IMG/VR virus record: IMGVR_UViG_3300045988_158394
Length of the DNA stretch: 64,000 bases
DNA from: a virus
Lineage: Duplodnaviria; Heunggongvirae; Uroviricota; Caudoviricetes
Reading direction: 5' to 3' (one strand)
In this document: piece after piece, positions 11,663-62,219 of the stretch
How the letters are laid out: each line of letters begins with the position of its first letter
Numbering within the stretch: position 1 is the stretch's first letter
The notes under the pieces: model-generated
The model's database searches: none
What the model was told of the DNA's origin: nothing
What the model saw: only the letters and a program-made list of their open reading frames with translations
Program-made: the position numbers and the translations under genes

Positions 11663-11679
11663 AATGCTCTAATAAATTT
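11663..11679 (+). promoter_or_regulatory. C1-repressor operator (16/17 match to ATTGCTCTAATAAATTT) ahead of the immI operon
   Basis: AATGCTCTAATAAATTT in the AT-rich intergenic region upstream of c4/icd/ant. Confidence 0.65.
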
Positions 11680-11866
11680 GTATTTTTAAGTCACGAATGC
11701 TATCTTTTCGCATCATATTGACCTTTTAATCGTTCAGGCTTATAGTTCCGCCGTCGTAGCAAATTCTGCGACCGGGTTTAGCAGCCTGAATGATTGTGCG
11801 GACAGCCGCAGATATCCGATATTGCGGTATTTTTGTGTCCGTAAAACCGCGTTACGCCCAAATTAT

Positions 11867-11943
11867 GGTGGGGCGTGATGGGGAGGCTTCGGCCTGCTGG
11901 TTTCACAATCGCCAGTCTGCTAACCCCGTCACGTCCTGCCACC
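11867..11943 (+). ncRNA. c4: c4-type antisense RNA (tRNA-like fold, about 77 nt)
   Basis: GGTGGGGCGTGATGGGG...CCCCGTCACG..CCTGCCACC forms a closed stem; internal CCTGCTGG and TCTGCTAAC are complementary to TAGCAGG and TTTAGCAG just downstream, ahead of icd. Boundaries approximate. Confidence 0.5.
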
Positions 11944-11993
11944 TGTTTAGCAGCGGGTAGCAGGTTGTTAAACCTGATTGTGAGGCCGTAACT

Positions 11994-15390: not shown

Positions 15391-15464
15391 TACAATCGTT
15401 GCGGGTGCTTGAGGCTATCTGCTTCAGGCATTACCCGAAAAGCAGATAGAAGAAAGCCCCAGAT

Positions 15465-15530
15465 AACATTACGCGTCCTGCAAGACGCTTAACATTAATC
15501 TGAGGCCATATCTATGCTTAGCATACGTAG
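15465..15530 (-). ncRNA. Putative Sok-like antisense RNA (position inferred)
   Basis: Inferred from hok/sok organisation: antisense to the mok-like leader/start region. No promoter verified; boundaries are a guess. Confidence 0.25.
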
Positions 15531-15571
15531 ATTAGCCTCTTACCGACCAAAAGGTCAAGGAGAAGCAGGCT

Positions 15572-15727
15572 ATGAAGCAGCAAAAAGCGATGTTAATCGC
15601 TCTGATCGTCATCTGTTTAACCGTCATTGTGACGGCACTGGTAACGAGGAAAGACCTCTGCGAGGTACGAATCCGAACCGGCCAGACGGAGGTCACTGTC
15701 TTCACAGCCTACGAATCTGAAAGGTAA
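15572..15727 (+). CDS. hok: Hok/Gef-family type I toxin (51 aa)
   Basis: MKQQKAMLIALIVICLTVIVTALVTRKDLCEVRIRTGQTEVTVFTAYESER aligns with Hok; AGGAGA RBS; the overlapping 15514-15720 ORF is the mok-like frame; leader resembles the hok mRNA 5' region. Confidence 0.75.
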   Translation: MKQQKAMLIALIVICLTVIVTALVTRKDLCEVRIRTGQTEVTVFTAYESER

Positions 15728-46900: not shown

Positions 46901-46922
46901 TAGTTACAGTGTCACTTTTAAT

Positions 46923-46955
46923 GCTGGTGGAGTGCGTCCCACCAGCATTTTTTTC
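46923..46955 (+). terminator. Rho-independent terminator
   Basis: GCTGGTGG-AGTGCGTC-CCACCAGC followed by ATTTTTTT. Confidence 0.65.
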
Positions 46956-46973
46956 GTCCAATGAGGAGGGCAT

Positions 46974-47480
46974 TTGAGTATTTTCAATAAACACGCACAC
47001 CAGGAACGTCCGTATATCGTCATAGTCGATATTGATGGGACGATATCAGAGGCAACGGAAGACAGGCTGCATTTGCTTCCACCACCTGGCAAAGGTGCAT
47101 TAACAGAGCACTGGAACGAGTTTAACCTTGCCTGTGACACTGATGCTCCCATCACTCCAGTTATTGATATGGTGCGCCAGTTATTTAACGTTTACACGGT
47201 CTGGTTTGTAACCGGGCGCTGTGAGATAGCCAGGGATAAAACACGAGCCTGGTTGCGTAAGCACGTAACAAACGGGGCTGAGCCTTTGCTATCTATGCGT
47301 CCTGCCACCGATGACAGAAATGACGGCCCAGCAAAGATTGCTCTCCTTAAGAAAATTGGTCTAAGTAAAATCGCGTTCGCGCTGGAAGATAAGATTGAAG
47401 TGGCGCGTGTTTTCAGGAGTCACGGCGTACTTACGTTAATGGTCAGGGAGTATGAAAACGCGCTTCTCCATCAACAGTAA
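46974..47480 (+). CDS. HAD-family phosphatase (DxDGT motif)
   Basis: TTG start after GAGGAGGG; IVIVDIDGTIS HAD motif I. Confidence 0.55.
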   Translation: MSIFNKHAHQERPYIVIVDIDGTISEATEDRLHLLPPPGKGALTEHWNEFNLACDTDAPITPVIDMVRQLFNVYTVWFVTGRCEIARDKTRAWLRKHVTNGAEPLLSMRPATDDRNDGPAKIALLKKIGLSKIAFALEDKIEVARVFRSHGVLTLMVREYENALLHQQ

Positions 47481-47496
47481 TTGCTCTAATAAATCT
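47480..47496 (+). promoter_or_regulatory. C1-repressor operator (16/17) abutting the phosphatase stop
   Basis: ATTGCTCTAATAAATCT begins at the last base of the stop codon. Confidence 0.6.
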
Positions 47497-47674
47497 TGAT
47501 TTTTAAAACAGAGAAAGTGAAAATAAAAACATGCCGCAAGGCGCGGCATGTATCCAATCAATCACAGGAGCTGAAAATATGAACACGGCATTCAAAATCA
47601 TTATGGCCGCGATCTATTTCTGGCTGTTCTCTATCACTTTTGGCGGCATCGTCGCGCATGGGTAAGGGGGATGC

Positions 47675-48400
47675 ATGAAAGGCGAAGTGAAAGAGCGCGG
47701 CATGATTTTCAACGATGAGATGGTCCGAGCCATCCTCGAAGGAAGGAAAACGCAGACGCGGCGGATAATGAAAAATCAGCCTGCGGAAGTTGGTCCAGAA
47801 GCACCAGTGATGGTTAGGGAAATTGGTGCAGGTTTTCAGTGGTACGGGGCTGATGGTGTAAGCAGTGTTTTCAATTGCCCCTTTGGTATCGTCGGCGATC
47901 GAATTTGGGTTCGTGAAACATGGGCGATATTAGGCAATGAAGATGGTTGCAGTGTGGACTGGAACGACAACCTTTGTCGTGGCGATGAGAAGAACGCAGC
48001 AAGGATTTATCGGGCCAGTTGTGAGCAAAAGCCTGGTGATTACGGTTTATGGTCGATACCCGATGATGCCGACTGGAAACCTCACACTGTGAATGAAAAG
48101 TTTGATGGTGGGTGGCGTCCATCAATTCACATGCCGCGATGGGCATCACGCATCCTGTTGGAAATTACCAACGTGCGCGTTGAGCGGTTGAACAATATCA
48201 GCGAATGCGATGCAAGGGATGAGGGCGTTCCGCCTGCTGGAAGTTTGCTTCCTGATCACCCGGGAACATTCCTTACTCCCAAGGGGGATTTCGCAATGGC
48301 CAAGGTTGCGTTCCAGCGCCTGTGGGAATCCATCTATGGTGAAGAAAGCTGGAACGCTAATCCCTGGGTGTGGGTAATCGAGTTTGAGCGTATTCAGTAG
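47675..48400 (+). CDS. Conserved phage protein (possibly ASCH-like fold)
   Basis: 241 aa; AAGGGGG RBS; motifs MIFNDEMVRAILEGRKTQTRR, IWVRETW, HMPRWASR. Confidence 0.5.
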   Translation: MKGEVKERGMIFNDEMVRAILEGRKTQTRRIMKNQPAEVGPEAPVMVREIGAGFQWYGADGVSSVFNCPFGIVGDRIWVRETWAILGNEDGCSVDWNDNLCRGDEKNAARIYRASCEQKPGDYGLWSIPDDADWKPHTVNEKFDGGWRPSIHMPRWASRILLEITNVRVERLNNISECDARDEGVPPAGSLLPDHPGTFLTPKGDFAMAKVAFQRLWESIYGEESWNANPWVWVIEFERIQ

Positions 48401-48409
48401 GGCGAGCGT

Positions 48410-48631
48410 ATGCAATCTGTTATTTGTGAGGAAGTCGGCCTGAATAAAGCATCCCCAGCAGAGTTAAGAGCAAGTCTCGAAATGGCGCATAGCCTTGCTC
48501 AAATTGGTGTCAGGTTTGTACCAATTCCAGTTGAAACAGATGAAGAATTTCACAGGTTAGCGGCATCGGCAGCACAAAAGCTGGAAATCATGGCAGCGAA
48601 AGTAGAGAAAGCTGAAGGAGCGACAAAATGA
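48410..48631 (+). CDS. Hypothetical protein
   Basis: 73-aa ORF in a tightly packed plus-strand array. Confidence 0.4.
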   Translation: MQSVICEEVGLNKASPAELRASLEMAHSLAQIGVRFVPIPVETDEEFHRLAASAAQKLEIMAAKVEKAEGATK

Positions 48632-48843
48632 GCAAGCCAACCGACGAAGAAATAGTTCGGGTGTTGGAAGAACACGGGCGCTGTATGACTTACGTCGTGA
48701 CCAACTGGCTTAGGGATAAATATCGCACACTCAAAACGGCATACGTTTTGCGTCGTCTAAAGAAACTGGAGTTCGACGGGAAAGTAAAGCGCGTTAACAG
48801 TTCTTATATAAGACAAATTTGCTGGGAGGCATCCAGTGAGTAA
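48628..48843 (+). CDS. Hypothetical protein
   Basis: 71-aa ORF, start overlaps the previous stop. Confidence 0.4.
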   Translation: MSKPTDEEIVRVLEEHGRCMTYVVTNWLRDKYRTLKTAYVLRRLKKLEFDGKVKRVNSSYIRQICWEASSE

Positions 48844-49480
48844 CCGTTTTTACATGATGTGCTTGCGTGAAACTGTGGGTAATAACGCCTCATTCCATTG
48901 CCATAACGGCAATGGTTACAGTTCTGATATCGATCGCGCTCATGTTTACACGCTGGAAGAAGCCCAAAAAGCCTGGAATTGTGGGCGAGATATCGATCAG
49001 CCTGTTTGTGCCGATAGTGTGGATGCAATGGCTGTGTGGCACGTTGATTGCCAGTACATCCCTACAGAAAGCCCGATTGAGTCAGATTGCACTGCGTATG
49101 TGGCCTACAAAAAAGGTAGCTGGAACGGCAACGATGTTTACTGGCTTCAACACGGTGGATTGCCAACAGATGACTTCAGTAAAGCGACCATCTTTAGCGT
49201 CGCCAACAAAAACGAACCAGGAATAGTTTGGTTGCCATTTTCCATTGCTGATGCAGCAAAGCGCCGGACGTTCAATATCAATAACTTTAACCGCAGAACA
49301 ATGGTTCAGGGCGCAGGTTTGGTCATGCCTGACTGGTTGAAAGAGCAGAACAGAAGAAAGAAGTCGCGAAGCGGGAAGGTGCGTTGGAATTGTCCGCATT
49401 GCGGAAAAATAACCTGGCAGTACAGCCCATATGATTTTGAAGGCTGTAGTGATTACAACTGTGAAGGATGGCGAGAATGA
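48836..49480 (+). CDS. Hypothetical protein with C-terminal Cys cluster
   Basis: 214 aa; CPHCGK...CSDYNCEGW at the C-terminus. Confidence 0.45.
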   Translation: MSNRFYMMCLRETVGNNASFHCHNGNGYSSDIDRAHVYTLEEAQKAWNCGRDIDQPVCADSVDAMAVWHVDCQYIPTESPIESDCTAYVAYKKGSWNGNDVYWLQHGGLPTDDFSKATIFSVANKNEPGIVWLPFSIADAAKRRTFNINNFNRRTMVQGAGLVMPDWLKEQNRRKKSRSGKVRWNCPHCGKITWQYSPYDFEGCSDYNCEGWRE

Positions 49481-50157
49481 CAATTGACTATCAGGTACTG
49501 CGTGAGGCGGCAGAAAAGGCAACACCAGACGAATGGGTCGCATTTATTTCGACGGATACTGGTACTTATGCGGTGCACACGCCCGGTGATGAACGATGTG
49601 AAGACGTTATCAAATGGACCGGCTTTGATGGACAGAAAAATGCAGAGAACAACGCTCGTTATGTTGCCGCGTTCAACCCAAAGGTTGCACTGGAGCTGCT
49701 TGGTGAAATTAAGCGCCTGGAGGACACAAATATTGATGCTATGTGCCGAATTGCAGAGCTTGAGACTAATCTCGCGGCGCTGGTGGCGGAGAATGCGGGG
49801 CTTAAGGCCTTCAAAACCGCCGTTTATCAGCAGATGGGCGTCGGATGTGATGCTCCTGAATTCTCCATTACGGTAGGTTTGAGTAACTTACGTCGTTTTG
49901 CTGACACACTCCACGCCATTGAGCGTGAGTTCTTTACCAAAGAGCTACCTGATGAAGAGCACGAAGGCGAAACATTCAATGAATGTCCACTTAGCTGGGG
50001 AATGAGCGTCGAACAGTACGTTTCCGAGTTTCGCAAATGCCTGGCTGAAGTACGGGCGCAGGGCGTGGAGATGTTTGCGGAGTGTGCATACACACTTGAA
50101 CATCATGATCACGCAGTAGCCTTCGCCGCTGAGCTTCGCAAAGGAGGCAACCAGTGA
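49468..50157 (+). CDS. Ead/Ea22-like protein, copy 1
   Basis: N-terminus MTIDYQVLREAAEKATPDEW typical of lambdoid Ea22-like proteins. Confidence 0.5.
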   Translation: MARMTIDYQVLREAAEKATPDEWVAFISTDTGTYAVHTPGDERCEDVIKWTGFDGQKNAENNARYVAAFNPKVALELLGEIKRLEDTNIDAMCRIAELETNLAALVAENAGLKAFKTAVYQQMGVGCDAPEFSITVGLSNLRRFADTLHAIEREFFTKELPDEEHEGETFNECPLSWGMSVEQYVSEFRKCLAEVRAQGVEMFAECAYTLEHHDHAVAFAAELRKGGNQ

Positions 50158-50648
50158 GCGAAATTAATTACCAGGCACTGCGTGAGGTGGCGGAACGTGC
50201 AATTCCAGCAATGGAACGCCTGTTAATGTTGCCAGCTGATGATGACTTGTTAAGTGAACAGGAACTTAAAGATTACGGTGTGGATATTGATGCGCTCAAC
50301 GCCTTCAAATTTCTGGCCGGACCAGAAACCGTGCTGGCACTACTTGATGAACGGGAAGCAGACAAAAAGCGCATTGCAGAACTGGAAGATCGGGAAATAA
50401 AACCAGCCAAAGGTGAAGTTCTTGTCGTTGTTTCTGGTTTTACTGGTTGCGGAAAAAGCGCCATTGCCGGGGAAATAGAAATCGCGATGAAGGCTATTGG
50501 TGTACCGGTTCAGTGGACTAATGGCGATGCGGAAAAGCGCATGACAGGAGCTGACTGGCTGACAGCGATTGAGATGTACAAACCAACAGTGCGCATCGTG
50601 GAAGTTAATGTGCCACGCGCCGCAGGCATTCGCATCAAAGGAGAGTGA
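50154..50648 (+). CDS. Ead/Ea22-like protein, copy 2
   Basis: N-terminus MSEINYQALREVAERA paralogous to the preceding gene. Confidence 0.5.
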   Translation: MSEINYQALREVAERAIPAMERLLMLPADDDLLSEQELKDYGVDIDALNAFKFLAGPETVLALLDEREADKKRIAELEDREIKPAKGEVLVVVSGFTGCGKSAIAGEIEIAMKAIGVPVQWTNGDAEKRMTGADWLTAIEMYKPTVRIVEVNVPRAAGIRIKGE

Positions 50649-50649
50649 T

Positions 50650-50847
50650 ATGGACAAAAACACACCTGCTTACTGGAGTTTATCACTTGATACTGAATGC
50701 CCAAAATGCGGCCACAATTTCGATCTGCTTTGCGATGCTGATTTCTGGGAATTTTCTGGAGCAAAACAGGCATGTGAAGAAATAAAAGATTACGAAACAT
50801 GCTGCCCAGAATGTAACCATGAATTTAAAACAGATTTTGTGTATTGA
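50650..50847 (+). CDS. Small Cys-rich protein
   Basis: Start at ATG 50650; two CxxC pairs (CPKCGH...CCPECNH). Confidence 0.4.
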   Translation: MDKNTPAYWSLSLDTECPKCGHNFDLLCDADFWEFSGAKQACEEIKDYETCCPECNHEFKTDFVY

Positions 50848-50857
50848 GGCATAACGA

Positions 50858-52129
50858 ATGACCACTTTTACTAAAGAACAATTAATAGAGATAATTAAGC
50901 GCAATATAACGGTTATGGATCGTTATCCTGATTTAGTAACTGCACAAATGGATCTGGAAGTATACAAAATCGCGCTGGCATCACTGGAAGCAGAACCAGT
51001 TGCTTATATTTTCAAACATCCGGCCGGGAAATTATTCTGGGCTTTAACGGATGAAAGCAATAAAGAGCAACCGGACGTTATTCCTGTTTATGCCGCCCCT
51101 CCAGTGCCAGTAGTACCTGAAGAAAAACCAATGCCTAACGCTCTAAGCATGCTTGAAAGAGAGATCACACAACTGATTGGTGATGCGCAGGAAGCCACTG
51201 TTACTGGCTATGAGTTAATCGCTGAAGCTTGGCGTTTGATGGATGGACAAGACCCTAAAACCAGCGATTGGCATAGCAAGGCTTCGAAGTATTTAAATTC
51301 CAATATTGTAGAAAAAGTTGATGATGACCGTATTGAGGCTGTTAAGGCTGTTTTGCGTAGACTGGCTGGCAACTCTCCGGTAATTCCAGGTGAGGTGCTG
51401 TCAGCAATTATGAAGGTTGCCAGGGTTCGTGCCGATTTCGATGATTTTGACGGTGACAGGCGAGGTATCGGTGATTGTCTGGATGAGGCTGAGCAAGAGC
51501 TTATCGTTACCATTAACAAATATGCCAGTCAGTTGGCAGCAGAACCGATAGCGACTAATGACGTTCGAGAGCAGCAGACAGCCGTTCCGCCAGTTCCTGT
51601 AATACAGGCTGATGTCGCGCAAGCAATTGAAAATCTCAGGCAGAAGTTAGTGGAATGCAATCGCTATAACTACTGCGCAGATGCAGTTAAGGGCGTAGAG
51701 GATGCCTGCCACGCTGCCATGCTTCAGGGTATCCAACCTGTAAGCCAAACTTACAAGTTTCCAGTTAATACACCTTGCCAGGATGCGCCAGCCCATATCT
51801 GGCTGCAAACAGCTGGAGTATGGCCAGAAGATGGCGAGTTAAGCGAATTAACGTGGTGCAGCCACAATCAGCACCATGATGACACGCTATATGTTCGAGC
51901 TGACTTGGTAAATGGCAATTCTCCGGTAACTCCGGATGGTTGGATAAGCTGTAGTGAGCGAATGCCCGCTCAAGATGATTGGATTTTAATTTATTCAAAG
52001 CACAGTGAGTATATGGCAGGACAGGTGCAAGGGGAATACGTGGAGTTGAGCGACGGCACTTTATCGTGGTTAGGGAACGCCTTGTTCTGGATGCTGCTAC
52101 CAGAACCTCCCCAGGAGGCAGGTCAATGA
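50858..52129 (+). CDS. DUF551-like C-terminal domain protein
   Basis: 423 aa; C-terminus WISCSERMPAQDDWILIY resembles the lambdoid DUF551 domain. Confidence 0.45.
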   Translation: MTTFTKEQLIEIIKRNITVMDRYPDLVTAQMDLEVYKIALASLEAEPVAYIFKHPAGKLFWALTDESNKEQPDVIPVYAAPPVPVVPEEKPMPNALSMLEREITQLIGDAQEATVTGYELIAEAWRLMDGQDPKTSDWHSKASKYLNSNIVEKVDDDRIEAVKAVLRRLAGNSPVIPGEVLSAIMKVARVRADFDDFDGDRRGIGDCLDEAEQELIVTINKYASQLAAEPIATNDVREQQTAVPPVPVIQADVAQAIENLRQKLVECNRYNYCADAVKGVEDACHAAMLQGIQPVSQTYKFPVNTPCQDAPAHIWLQTAGVWPEDGELSELTWCSHNQHHDDTLYVRADLVNGNSPVTPDGWISCSERMPAQDDWILIYSKHSEYMAGQVQGEYVELSDGTLSWLGNALFWMLLPEPPQEAGQ

Positions 52130-52622
52130 GCTGGCCTGAAGCATTCGCAACGGTAGGAATTGTGATGGCGGCAGCACTGGGTTTGTATTCAATTTGTCGC
52201 TGGTGGTAACGATGGGAAAAATAACTTTTGTAGTCGATTTGAGGATGGTAAAGAGCCACCTGTTAGCGCCAATCTTGATGTTGCTGGTGGAAGGCTTGTT
52301 TCGGTTCTATTTGGTGACAACCGAGATGACTTCTTCCAACCAGAAGAAGTTGATGTAGTGCGAGAGGCATTAAACGAGTTAAGTGTTGACAACGATGATG
52401 CTCATGCGGAAATCATCCAAAAAATGGAACTGCTAACTCACTAAATTATCAATTATGGTGCTATCACCTACGACACCGAGAGAAAATTTATAATGTCAAA
52501 AGTAAATGTTTTGATTTTTTCAGCAATTGTTGGCTTTGGTTTTACTGCCGGAGTGCAGATTTATATTACGTGGGAAAAAATCATCAACTACGCATGGAGT
52601 TGTTTTATTAAGTGAGGTAAGT

Positions 52623-52916
52623 ATGTGGAGAGGTAATAGTCATGGCAAAAGCCAGATGATACTTACCGAATATCAGCTCGACCACAAAACCAATAAATCA
52701 CGTTCAGTATATTTGCTTCGCCACAATAGCCGCGTAAGGAATACCGTACTGGAGCAAAATCTGACCGTTGAAATGGATAATTACGGGGGCTTCAAGCCAA
52801 CAATATCGCTTGATGATTTTCCTCGTGGTTTAAGCGAAAGAGAAGCAATGCTGAAATTAGCAGAATGGCTACAAAGATTAAGCATTGCTATTGAAGATAA
52901 CTGGTCTGAACCTTAA
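52623..52916 (+). CDS. Hypothetical protein
   Basis: Start at ATG 52623 after GAGG; the longer track ORF starts at 52527. Confidence 0.4.
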   Translation: MWRGNSHGKSQMILTEYQLDHKTNKSRSVYLLRHNSRVRNTVLEQNLTVEMDNYGGFKPTISLDDFPRGLSEREAMLKLAEWLQRLSIAIEDNWSEP

Positions 52917-52922
52917 ATTAAT

Positions 52923-53297
52923 ATGATGACACTAAAACATTTTCTTGACCGCCCATTATGGGCGGCAGCCGCAGGCTATGACTTTAATTATATGGATTGC
53001 ATGTCTTATACTGCCAATGCATACGACCATTCGTTCAGCCTGCTGTTTAATTCTTTAAGAATATTGCCGGAAACAGAAGTTGGAGAGCTTCATTTATGGA
53101 TATTGGGCTTTATCGCGGCTGTCGTTGGTATTGCTGTATGGCCTTTTATTTTCTGGCTGGTGGCTGTTGTAGTGTGGTTTAAGTGCAAGACATACCGGAG
53201 AAAGTATTTCTTAGGTGATGGAATGACTGATATTGCCAAAATGAACATTGAAAAATGGACTAAGGAATGTGAAAAGAAATGGCGCAAAAAGAAATGA
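52923..53297 (+). CDS. Membrane protein
   Basis: 124 aa with a hydrophobic segment (LWILGFIAAVVGIAVWPFIFWLVAVVVWF). Confidence 0.45.
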   Translation: MMTLKHFLDRPLWAAAAGYDFNYMDCMSYTANAYDHSFSLLFNSLRILPETEVGELHLWILGFIAAVVGIAVWPFIFWLVAVVVWFKCKTYRRKYFLGDGMTDIAKMNIEKWTKECEKKWRKKK

Positions 53298-54211
53298 CCA
53301 GAATCACTGAAGAGCGTATATCAGAGACTATTTCCCGTATCGAAATGTATGGTCACGGTGCTGGATATACGGCAGATGAAGTATTGGCACTTGCCCAAAT
53401 GGCTTTGGCGGCTTGCAAAGATGATAAAAAAATGAAGCTTATCGACTTGTTAGTGAAGGAGCTGTCTAAGTGCGGCGGGTGGCCTGATGGAATGAGTTAT
53501 TGTTACCTACCCAGTGTCAATTTAATGGCACCATGCGCGACTTTTGCTTTTGGCTCAGACCACAAAAAAGACACTTTCTTTGGGCGCAATTTTTGTTGTG
53601 AGATTGAGCTTCCAATTGGTGACCTTGATAGCGATGAATACCAGTCAGTTGTCACTCGCGAACAATACGAATCAGCTCTCATAGCGTCGCAGAAAGTCGA
53701 GTTCAATGGTGATGAACTTGAAAGTAAGACTTACAGGTTGGATTTTGGGCAATGGCTGGAACAGCAACGCGGGAAAATCGATGTGGACTGTGGTTGTGTG
53801 TCCACTGAAACATTCATGCACTGGCTGCGGGTAGCTTACGAGGCTGGCAACTATCCGGACATTCCGGATAGTTCGGTGCCAGCGAAAGGAAAGGGCGTCC
53901 CCGGTGAACGTATCCGAATTAAGCCGCATGTTTATCGCGAACTGGTTAACCGCCTCCACGATACAGCGGTCAAGTGTGCTGGCACCCAGCAATTACGAGA
54001 AAGAATTAGCCGTGTTTTGGGCGACGTTATTACGCCAGATCATCATAAACAAGCCGAGAAAAGTGACCTAGAAAGGTGTCACCTTGAGGCGGCATTAAAC
54101 ATTAAGCCGGGGCATACGCTTGGCATTATCGATGCTCTGTTGGTTCATAAGATGGCCATGGCTTTATTGCCGTTGGTGGATGCTGGCGATACAAGCGAGG
54201 GTGAAGTATGA
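53279..54211 (+). CDS. Hypothetical protein
   Basis: 310-aa ORF, coupled to neighbours. Confidence 0.45.
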   Translation: MAQKEMTRITEERISETISRIEMYGHGAGYTADEVLALAQMALAACKDDKKMKLIDLLVKELSKCGGWPDGMSYCYLPSVNLMAPCATFAFGSDHKKDTFFGRNFCCEIELPIGDLDSDEYQSVVTREQYESALIASQKVEFNGDELESKTYRLDFGQWLEQQRGKIDVDCGCVSTETFMHWLRVAYEAGNYPDIPDSSVPAKGKGVPGERIRIKPHVYRELVNRLHDTAVKCAGTQQLRERISRVLGDVITPDHHKQAEKSDLERCHLEAALNIKPGHTLGIIDALLVHKMAMALLPLVDAGDTSEGEV

Positions 54212-54570
54212 GAGTTGCAGATCACATCAAACACCTTGAAAGAATTATCGAAAACGGTGAACTCTTAAGAGATCAGATGAGACGCACGGCAGAAGTCAGA
54301 GAGGCGATAATCCGCAGTCAGGCTGGTAAATTAAAGCAATTGTCAGAGATTAACGCGCTATACAAGAACAGACGTAACCGGGCGGCGCGGCGGCTTCAGA
54401 AAGCACGTAATGAAATTAAATTGGTGGAGGCAAAACTGAAAAAACAGATTCAGCGTTACGATCAGCAAGATGCTTTTTATGCCGCCATCAAGGCGGCTGC
54501 TAATGAAATAGGCATCTGGAAGTTGCTGGTGGAGAAAGCAAAGACGAAGTTAAATGCCAACGAAAGCTGA
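54208..54570 (+). CDS. Basic coiled-coil protein
   Basis: 120-aa ORF rich in Lys/Arg heptads. Confidence 0.45.
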   Translation: MRVADHIKHLERIIENGELLRDQMRRTAEVREAIIRSQAGKLKQLSEINALYKNRRNRAARRLQKARNEIKLVEAKLKKQIQRYDQQDAFYAAIKAAANEIGIWKLLVEKAKTKLNANES

Positions 54571-55220
54571 ACTACAGGTACCCACCAGCACATACAGAAA
54601 ATGATTGTTTCCACATCAAGGAGATTTTAATGTTTCACTGAAACATTAAGTAAGCCAGTGCATAATTCCATTTTTTACTGACCTTAAAAGCAAAATCAAA
54701 ACGATGATGAGGATAATAGCCAGAATCTGGCTAATAACAGGCGCATCTAAAAATGCACTCAGGAACTGAAAAAAAGCAGTCATTAAGGTGGTTCCTTGTC
54801 AAATGTAAAGGAGCACTTGCTCACGTTGACGTAGAAACCCAACCCTTATATAGTTGGATTCGGTGAAAGAAAGTCGTTAACGTGAGCTTACGGCACATGT
54901 TTTCGGAACAACATCAGGGAACGGCTAATTCCTTGATGCGGGTGGGGTCTGTAATGCAGACCCTATCTATTAACGTCATGATTGCATCTCAAATTTTCTC
55001 CTTATCTTCATTAATCAAAATTCATTTCATTTGTGAAACATCACAATATTTAGAAAATGGCCCTCTTGCAAGTGCATAACTTTGTGGATAAATCAGGAAG
55101 AAAAAAGTTGATTCTGCGCACGGCAAGGCAGATAAGCTGTGCACAAAAATCAATGGGAGAAGAAAAAAAATTAAAAGTTACTTTGCTGGTTAAATAATAG
55201 TCGTTACTCAATTATTCTGG

Positions 55221-55484
55221 ATGGGATTTGATATGTACGATTGGAATATTGCAGCTAAAAGTCAGGAAGAACGGGATAAGGTTAACGTTGATCTGGCTGC
55301 CAGCGGTGTGGCGTACAAAGAGCGATTGAACATACCTGTCATAGCTGAACAGGTAGCCCGCGAGCAACCAGAGAATCTGCGCACCTATTTCATGGAACGG
55401 CTACGGCACTACTGGCAGTTAAGCCTCCAGTTGCCAAAAGGGAGCGATCCGGCATATCAGAAAGATGATGCCGTAAAGAAATAG
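55221..55484 (+). CDS. hot: Homologue of DNA polymerase III theta subunit (HolE-like)
   Basis: [43 protein letters not shown] aligns with E. coli HolE. Confidence 0.75.
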
Positions 55485-55610
55485 CGGTAGTTAACCGTTT
55501 TGAACTTCTCGTATCCTGGCAATGACAGCTTCATGCTGGGCTTGGATAGCGGCTTTTTCGTTTTCAAGTCGGGCAATAGACATCTCTAATTCTTTGCTGT
55601 ACCAGGCGAG

Positions 55611-61880: not shown

Positions 61881-62011
61881 TGTTTTTTAACTACCGATGT
61901 TACATTGAACCTGACCTCTTGCGCCTTGAGGCATTTTCGGTTTATGCTTATCAGGCACCTCAGTAAAACGGGTGCCGGGATTGAGACCCCGGATAATGCA
62001 AAAGGCGACAC

Positions 62012-62034
62012 AGACGCCAAAAGCGTCTTTTTTT
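62012..62034 (+). terminator. Terminator/attenuator hairpin in the leader of the second immI-like module
   Basis: AGACGC-CAAAA-GCGTCT followed by TTTTTTT. Confidence 0.55.
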
Positions 62035-62083
62035 GTGTCATGCCATCGCACAGCCATACGTAGCGTTTAGCTCAGAGATCAAT

Positions 62084-62159
62084 GGTAGTGCTGGCTGGGC
62101 TGCCGAAAGGCAGGCCGGTTCCCTTTTGCGCCGGTAGTCTCAACCCAGTCAGTGCTACC
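62084..62159 (+). ncRNA. c4-like antisense RNA, second diverged copy
   Basis: GGTAGTGCTGG...CCAGTCAGTGCTACC closing stem with internal hairpins, same position relative to icd' as the first c4; GTCTCAA is complementary to TTGAGAC downstream. Confidence 0.4.
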
Positions 62160-62219
62160 GCCATTGAGATTGAGACCTCACGCGGTAGCTCCTTAAATTA
62201 GCAAAAGGAGGCTGCCATT

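Follow-up and report, generated by a model that had tools for sequence, protein, structure and literature searches.

The stretch of DNA analysed here, called the window, comprises 64,000 nucleotides of the IMG/VR virus record IMGVR_UViG_3300045988_158394. It matches phage P1 and its relatives and is identified as part of a P1-like phage-plasmid, with pap, pmgS, pmgV, hot, and lxr flanking the gene block that is our subject. This block is a known, highly variable stretch of non-essential early genes, running from pap to pmgV, that is ordinary for the P1-like family, and its version in the window is a fresh combination inside a published variable region. Our main reading, to which we give a probability of roughly 0.78, is that the block forms an early accessory operon with conserved anchors at both ends and cassette exchange between them, and that the short version in reference P1 is a derived, deleted state.

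What we regard as modestly new is the origin of pmgT and pmgU by deletion, the presence of a conserved first cistron (orf28), and the recombination joints at a linker-coding motif. Among the openly accessible full texts searched, none was found that derives P1 pmgT and pmgU from a deletion or that names orf28. The most specific form of our proposal holds that orf28, with orf27 as a second peptide, is translated, that orf28 is the universal first gene of the C1-controlled operon in P1-family phages, that this operon is a fixed frame that takes up linker-shuffled cassettes, and that P1 pmgT and pmgU are deletion scars. We put this combination forward tentatively, with chances that fall a little short of even.

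Reference P1 is a deletion derivative

Sequence comparison indicates that reference P1 is a deletion derivative, in that P1 lost about 5.5 kb and the other element did not gain it. The distance from the pap stop codon to the pmgV start codon is 6,727 bp in the window and 1,260 bp in P1. Pairwise BLAST aligns P1 with window positions 46901-48369 and 53836-55600, with flank identities of 97.6% on the left and 99.9% on the right, and the two matches abut at one P1 coordinate. The stretch absent from P1 is a contiguous 5,466 bp (48370-53835) with both endpoints inside genes. The left end follows codon 232 of a gene for a 241-amino acid (aa) ASCH-like protein (47675-48400, + strand, phrog_874), and the right end lies in a gene for a 310-aa modular protein (53279-54211, + strand). 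P1 PmgT (309 aa) consists of 232 aa of the ASCH-like protein followed by 77 aa read out of frame from the 310-aa gene, and P1 PmgU is exactly the last 111 aa of the 310-aa protein, a remnant that lacks the original start.

We conclude that P1 lost DNA because the breakpoints fall inside two open reading frames (ORFs), creating a chimeric PmgT and a truncated PmgU, and because the long versions are the norm in P1-like elements. The 241-aa protein has 8000 or more homologues with lengths of about 240 aa, and a 32-sequence alignment of the family reveals invariant residues (W233, V234, F237) located past the P1 breakpoint, which P1 PmgT lacks. Even homologues in unrelated prophages can be aligned up to residue 240-241.

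For comparison among relatives, 49 loci carrying PmgV were fetched and combined with five reference records, and the proteins of the window were mapped onto all of them. Lengths and anchors were counted over 39 loci containing both pap and pmgV (34 IMG/VR contigs and the five reference records). The P1 arrangement is a minority form present in three of these 39 loci. The junction occurs at 100% identity in seven natural E. coli plasmids in a collection of 5,426 complete genomes, and also in two IMG/VR contigs. Direct repeats at the deletion endpoints were considered and rejected. Only about 1 nucleotide (nt) of microhomology is present at the junction, which therefore points to illegitimate rather than homologous recombination.

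The sequence-only reading of this DNA had described the block as shorter in P1 and suggested a mosaic acquisition. The length difference was borne out, and the gene content of the two versions is not identical. Mosaicism among the cassettes is also real, but the suggested direction is wrong with respect to P1, which lost the contiguous stretch.

Fixed anchors and exchangeable cassettes

Over the 39 loci, the pap-pmgV distance ranges from 521 to 8,450 bp (4,148 bp in P7) with many gene combinations. Four elements are present in every one of these loci, namely pap, orf28, the C-terminal part of the 310-aa protein, and pmgV. The minimal locus (L201; IMGVR_UViG_2778261696_000004, 9659-9663) has a block of 521 bp, in which the orf28 stop codon directly abuts the linker motif that precedes the PmgU module, and a GTG start for this module is located 11 nt past the orf28 stop. 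The operon has conserved anchors, which are the operator, promoter, and orf28 at its left end and the PmgU module with pmgV at its right end, and the stretch between them is an array of exchangeable cassettes.

The linker motif is 23-26 nt long and occurs three times in the window, in all cases within the block, compared with an expectation of zero. On the + strand, copy 1 (51367-51392) encodes GNSPVIPG, copy 2 (51913-51938) encodes GNSPVTPD, and copy 3 (53845-53870), directly upstream of the PmgU module, encodes GNYPDIPD. These copies code for linkers within the 310-aa protein and within a 423-aa modular protein described below. When breakpoints are collected from 80 related loci, they pile up at the motifs (51360-51400 at copy 1; 51900-51980, the largest, at copy 2; a smaller cluster at 53840-53880) and at gene boundaries (52126, 52617-52622, 52916, 53298, and about 54182). 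Database matches to p95JB1A, MH422554, and an Stx2c phage start at 51908-51914, next to copy 2. In the loci L172, L194, and L206, copy 1 is fused to copy 3 through a 24-nt overlap, which yields a hybrid protein. For three independent rearrangements, the right-hand junction lies no more than 30 nt from copy 3 (P1 at 53836, L201 at 53866, and L172/L194/L206 at 53842), and the left breakpoint of L201 is the orf28 stop codon itself. Cassettes are thus swapped both at gene boundaries and at a short conserved motif that encodes linkers inside modular proteins.

A predicted early operon under C1 control

Immediately after pap (46974-47480), which has a HAD_PNKP match in Pfam, the window carries a C1 operator on the + strand (47480-47496) with one mismatch to ATTGCTCTAATAAATTT. 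It is the equivalent of P1 Op88/OpmgT and occupies the position of the annotated OpmgT/PpmgT of P1. Eight matches to the 17-bp C1 operator occur in the window, compared with 0.04 expected. The operator overlaps the sigma-70 promoters P2pmgT and P1pmgT (about 47481-47524, + strand), for which a −35 element TTGATT (47496-47501) and a −10 element GAAAAT (47519-47524) can be recognized.

Downstream, the interval 47579-54570 holds 13 conventional + strand genes plus three small ORFs, in keeping with the earlier description of about 12 tightly coupled genes that form an accessory block. Neighbouring genes overlap by up to 19 nt or are separated by up to 10 nt, with the single exception of a 48-nt gap, and a terminator scan gave no internal terminator-like sites above background. 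These features suggest that approximately 16 translationally packed cistrons could be transcribed from the promoters behind the operator. As judged from the operator, the operon would be silent in the lysogen and expressed as one mRNA upon C1 derepression or infection.

The operon mRNA carries a 10-bp GC-rich hairpin (47529-47551) at its predicted 5′ end. Only on the minus strand does a run of T nucleotides follow this hairpin, which there resembles a terminator and could end antisense or convergent transcription. No match to a minus-strand promoter was found near this hairpin.

Small hydrophobic ORFs

The three small membrane ORFs noted previously are present, and each contains a 19-residue stretch with a mean Kyte-Doolittle hydropathy of 1.8-2.1. 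They are missing from the reference P1 annotation but have already been called in other database records, one example being entries named 'membrane protein' in Salmonella phage SJ46. The exact orf28 and orf40 peptides are present, and orf27 is represented by an allele that differs by one residue, the exact peptide of the window being absent from the collection searched. None of the three matches a Pfam family above threshold.

The first cistron, orf28 (47579-47665, + strand), encodes a 28-aa hydrophobic peptide (MNTAFKIIMAAIYFWLFSITFGGIVAHG; hydropathy 2.1) predicted to form a single helix. Its ATG is preceded at 8 nt by AGGAG, and its stop codon lies 9 nt before the next start. The frame is intact in all 49 P1-type leaders recovered, and orf28 is found in each of the 39 loci with pap and pmgV, including reference P1, regardless of which gene follows. 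The homology of some phages stops directly after it. Only four of 87 sites vary (three synonymous third-position changes and one Ala>Ser), compared with 22 of 107 in the flanks (Fisher p = 0.0012), and there is an excess of synonymous change (p = 0.035). This pattern indicates that orf28 is conserved under purifying selection, and we consider it a real gene that is unannotated in reference P1. A structured RNA leader as the cause of this conservation was rejected, given that folding of the operon leader is not unusual relative to shuffled sequences outside the hairpin (z = -0.75) and that an Rfam scan found no family inside the block.

The second peptide, encoded by orf27 (52126-52209, + strand), is 27 aa long and hydrophobic (MSWPEAFATVGIVMAAALGLYSICRWW). 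Its start codon overlaps the stop codon of the upstream DUF551 gene as ATGA, an AGGAGG sequence is located upstream, and only 2 nt separate its stop codon from the next start. A second allele (MSWPEAFAIVGVAMAIAAIFIFWG) has a different upstream gene and differs at 29 of 72 nt, but its frame is open and hydrophobic and the other two frames are closed. Where the ATG of this allele is changed to ATA, an upstream TGA is changed to GGA, which opens an in-frame ATG. On these grounds, orf27 is probably real. Both orf28 and orf27 would then be translated as small membrane proteins.

The third candidate, orf40 (52493-52615, + strand, 40 aa, phrog_5525), fills the only sizeable intergenic gap and has a weak Shine-Dalgarno sequence. 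It carries 12 non-synonymous and four synonymous changes, which corresponds to the neutral expectation (p = 0.41), and among 65 loci the start codon is lost once, the stop codon is lost once, and the frame is shifted once. This ORF may be non-functional.

Gene content of the block

All genes of the block lie on the + strand. The 241-aa protein at its left has no Pfam or NCBIfam match at E≤0.01. Homologues carry the PGAP label 'ASCH domain-containing', and a PDB sequence match to ASC-1 is weak (E 0.84). The AF2 model has a pLDDT of 62, with residues 80-157 unmodelled, and the five best Foldseek matches of this low-confidence model in the PDB are ASCH, DUF984, and YqfB structures (E 0.07-0.2, TM 0.2-0.44). 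The ASCH label is therefore weakly supported. Next are a DUF1382 protein of 73 aa (48410-48631; PF07131, 100.5 bits; phrog_292), for which PGAP places the start 10 codons later, and a 71-aa protein (48628-48843; phrog_9799) whose gene forms an ATGA overlap with that of DUF1382.

The earlier description also mentioned Cys-cluster proteins, two of which can be recognized. One is a 214-aa Cys-rich protein (48836-49480), a homologue of P7 Upf87.6 with a C-terminal CxxC...C...C arrangement, in which C186, C189, and C204 are invariant and C209 is near-invariant among 43 homologues. Its model is confident (pLDDT 91.9) and gave no structural analogue. The other is a 65-aa zinc-ribbon-like protein (50650-50847; phrog_4173, E 8.8e-27) with a CPKC...CPEC pattern, whose matches to zinc-hook, TRASH, and YnfU families are weak and sub-threshold. 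Its gene is rare, occurring in one of the 54 other P1-like loci (the 49 fetched with PmgV and the five reference records).

Between these two genes lies a pair of Ead/Ea22-family genes, which, like the DUF551-like protein further on, had been correctly recognized and score above the Pfam gathering thresholds (27 bits for PF13935 and 22 bits for PF04448). The first encodes 229 aa (49468-50157; PF13935, 71 bits) and the second 164 aa with a different C-terminal domain (50154-50648; PF13935, 74.9 bits). Similarity between them by BLASTP is confined to the N-terminal ~15 residues (E 3e-4). In the 229-aa protein, the DNA match to lambdoid phages stops at 49805, where the N-terminal/coiled-coil part gives way to the C-terminal domain. 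In the 164-aa protein, the C-terminal domain (aa ~85-164) contains a Walker-A-like GFTGCGKS sequence; its matches to P-loop proteins (adenylyl-sulfate kinase, ArsA, FtsY) are weak and non-significant.

The 423-aa modular protein (50858-52129) has a C-terminal DUF551 domain (aa 361-419; PF04448, 39.3 bits) and contains two copies of the linker motif, and 13 different PHROGs match separate segments of it. Paralogy between the 423-aa and 310-aa proteins was considered and rejected, as BLASTP finds nothing and the two have in common only short modules and the linker motif. A 29-nt near-palindrome is present in both genes in inverted orientation (51731-51759 in the 423-aa gene and 53715-53743 in the 310-aa gene).

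To the right of orf27 is a 77-aa gene (52212-52444, phrog_3876) that is disrupted by a 1-bp deletion near 52237. This frameshift (GTCGAATTTG to GTCGATTTG) is found in the window only, the gene being intact in p95JB1A, mip270_04, and all other loci examined, and it represents either a recent pseudogene or a sequencing error. Beyond orf40 are genes for a 97-aa protein (52623-52916; phrog_1258) and for a 124-aa membrane protein (52923-53297; phrog_2638) that is strongly hydrophobic at about aa 66-90 (hydropathy 2.6). The C-terminal ~111-120 aa of the 310-aa protein that follows constitute the P1 PmgU module. In a full-library HMMER search, this module (aa 188-301) is C-terminal in proteins whose lengths range from 227 to 442 aa, and a separate module, aa 140-205, recurs in hundreds of proteins. 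By its distribution, the PmgU module is a portable C-terminal domain. The right anchor, pmgV (54208-54570; phrog_4403), encodes a coiled-coil-like protein of 120 aa and is present in every locus; the pmgU-pmgV stretch has 99.9% DNA identity to P1.

Right of the block is hot (55221-55484), which has a DNA_pol3_theta match; the location of the block between a HAD phosphatase gene and hot was thus described accurately. An additional 45-aa, very hydrophobic ORF (MTAFFQFLSAFLDAPVISQILAIILIIVLILLLRSVKNGIMHWLT) is located on the minus strand between pmgV and the upfM region (54646-54783). It has been called by PGAP in p95JB1A as WP_000123562.1, is unlisted in the reference P1 annotation, and has no match in Pfam or PHROGs.

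Elsewhere in the window, a full-length match to the sok antitoxin RNA (15403-15577; Rfam RF01794, 114.9 bits) implies a type I toxin-antitoxin module of the hok/sok type. There are also two genes for C4 antisense RNA. One is located at 11740-11946, with a1/b1 targets at 11740-11792 and 11861-11946, and the other at 62078-62165 (region 61955-62165), beside an isrK-like small RNA (61955-62033). C1 operator matches adjoin both of them, at 11663 and 61864.

Lambdoid and P1-family parts of the block

The block had been called lambdoid in type, a label that fits its central third but not its outer parts, which are P1-family DNA. Within 48825-51966, DNA identity is 95-98% to hundreds of Stx, lambdoid, and P22-like phages. 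For the portion 48825-49805, the identity to an Stx2c phage is 97.9%, and matches of lesser length continue to 51966. There are 448 matching phage records, mostly of Stx or lambdoid phages, and matches to the block in E. coli genomes are mostly chromosomal (5,339 places versus 1,268 on plasmids). The P22-like phage vB_EcoP-611R6 has the order 214-aa gene, Ea22, small gene, and DUF551 in its early-left operon, between recT and xis. The outer parts (47500-48830 and 52100-54570) give nucleotide matches almost only to P1-family phages, the exception being three Yersinia phages that share a piece of ~310 bp inside the ASCH-like gene. The block is not contained in full in any single record of the phage, plasmid, or E. 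coli collections, and the best database matches are two E. coli plasmids with 81% coverage at 99% identity.

Possible functions and alternative explanations

Our working model is that the block would be an early, C1-repressed, dispensable operon whose products may modulate the host or the lysis-lysogeny decision, with counter-defence as an alternative that is not mutually exclusive. A precedent is provided by the Ea22 proteins of lambda and Stx phages, which form tetramers and favour lysogeny, and in which a conserved N-terminal/coiled-coil part is combined with swappable C-terminal domains that include DUF551 (PMC10834534, PMC7093339). By analogy, the products of the block could be dispensable modulators of the same general kind and not components of the virion.

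The morphogenetic label itself is not supported. According to this label, the genes act in head or particle assembly, as the pmg names imply, and what speaks for it is only the historical P1 annotation 'putative morphogenetic function' and the names propagated from it. CRISPRi and deletion experiments established that pmgT, pmgU, and pmgV are non-essential in P1 (PMC10695390), the promoter is an early one controlled by C1 with no late promoter annotated for the operon, phages that are otherwise similar differ in the size of this content, from 0.5 to 8.5 kb, and a P22-like (lambdoid) phage has the central cassettes in its early-left operon. A role in assembly is accordingly very improbable. Somewhat less remote, but still highly unlikely and largely refuted as an account of how P1 differs, is a recent lambdoid insertion into an ancestral P1-like backbone. 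Such an event would agree with the shorter locus of P1 and with the fact that P1-like phage-plasmids exchange about 30% of their genes (PMC10879196), and the near-identity of the central third to lambdoid and Stx phages means that DNA has moved between phage types. An insertion is difficult to reconcile with P1 breakpoints that lie inside two ORFs and leave an out-of-frame tail on PmgT and a start-less PmgU, or with the presence of the full-length 241-aa form, including its invariant C-terminal residues, across its thousands of homologues. Moreover, the DNA missing from P1 includes P1-family-specific genes besides lambdoid ones, and the arrangement that would have to be ancestral is the rare one.

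A further possibility is that the small ORFs, all three of them, are open by chance within leader or intergenic DNA and produce no protein. Short hydrophobic ORFs easily arise by chance in AT-rich DNA, Pfam recognizes none of the three, and orf40 evolves neutrally and is broken in three of 65 loci. For orf28, this explanation conflicts with the strong Shine-Dalgarno sequence, the fourfold deficit of variable sites relative to the flanks, the mostly synonymous changes, and the retention of the frame even in the 521-bp minimal block; for orf27, it conflicts with a divergent allele that keeps its frame and compensates for its start codon. We regard chance as an improbable explanation for the set. 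A better, though still unlikely, contender is that the block is an island devoted mainly to counter-defence or superinfection exclusion, in which early genes inhibit host immunity and membrane peptides exclude other phages. The early promoter, the non-essential genes, and the extreme turnover of cassettes fit this idea circumstantially, as do several membrane peptides and small proteins without a known fold, such as the 214-aa protein with its confident model and no analogue. Weighing on the other side, PADLOC defence models gave no family for the 10 proteins tested, the papers on the hotspot, on the pmg genes, and on Ea22 cited here draw no defence link for these families, and the sole experimental phenotype for a member family, that of Ea22, concerns the balance between lysis and lysogeny.

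Several points also weigh against our preferred reading of an early accessory operon of modulators. Searches of the block proteins against Pfam, NCBIfam, PHROGs, PADLOC, and the PDB returned domains named as DUFs, unnamed families, or nothing, and PDB sequence searches with five of them gave nothing better than E 0.2. The pro-lysogenic role of Ea22 is known from lambda and Stx proteins that have C-terminal domains different from those found here (PMC10834534, PMC7093339). The evidence for selection on orf28 comes from four variable sites, and its conservation could partly reflect a cis-acting function of the leader. Finally, the operon structure, its timing, and the translation of the small ORFs are inferred from sequence.

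The main value of these findings is for curation, as P1 is the reference genome for a large phage-plasmid family that carries resistance genes. If P1 is recognized as the deleted form, published comparisons reverse their direction and two 'putative morphogenetic' genes leave the gene list. As the conserved first cistron, orf28 is a specific and inexpensive candidate for validating a small protein in a model phage, and the joints at the linker motif clearly illustrate the reshuffling of modular phage proteins. The current understanding of phage biology is unchanged by these results.

Comparison with known systems

With its small size (28 aa) and hydrophobic character, orf28 resembles the toxins of type I toxin-antitoxin systems. 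As for the antisense RNA of such systems, the minus strand offers the terminator-like hairpin (47551-47529), with no nearby promoter match and no Rfam family in the block.

The exo-xis/early-left region of lambdoid phages shares with the block the Ead/Ea22 genes with swapped C-terminal domains, DUF551, and an early, non-essential character, in addition to the gene order of a P22-like phage and the high DNA identity over 48825-51966. The block differs in being placed under a P1 C1 operator instead of PL/N and in lacking flanking recombination and excision genes, and its outer two thirds are P1-family-specific at the DNA level apart from the Yersinia-phage piece.

Among close relatives, the upf86.8-upf90.8 region of P7 has the same anchors, the 214-aa gene (Upf87.6), whose DNA is 98% identical over 48825-49513, a gene resembling Ea22, and a modular protein of hybrid build. 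This protein, Upf89.5, fuses the equivalent of window positions 51370-51749 to 53721-55189, and P7 consequently lacks the genes from orf27 to that of the 124-aa protein. The joint (51749 to 53721) falls at the 29-nt near-palindrome. The pmgT-pmgU-pmgV operon of P1 (NC_005856) shares the promoter and operator, an unannotated orf28, the first 232 codons of the ASCH-like gene, the PmgU module, and pmgV with the window, at 97.6-99.9% identity. It differs by the absence of the 5,466 bp, with the consequent out-of-frame tail of PmgT and the reduction of PmgU to a remnant.

The hotspot as a whole already has names. It is RD-5, extending from pap to lxr (PMC6906374), and variable region 8, extending from pmgT to humD (PMC9603915), where pmgT of JL22 is described as 'replaced by a series of gene clusters'. 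Position, flanking genes, and type of content are shared with the block, and JL22, P7, SJ46, RCS47, and many plasmids hold alternative cassettes there. In the passages searched, both studies take P1 as the baseline, such that pmgT is 'replaced' or 'modified' in other elements, whereas comparison with the block described here presents P1 as the deleted form.

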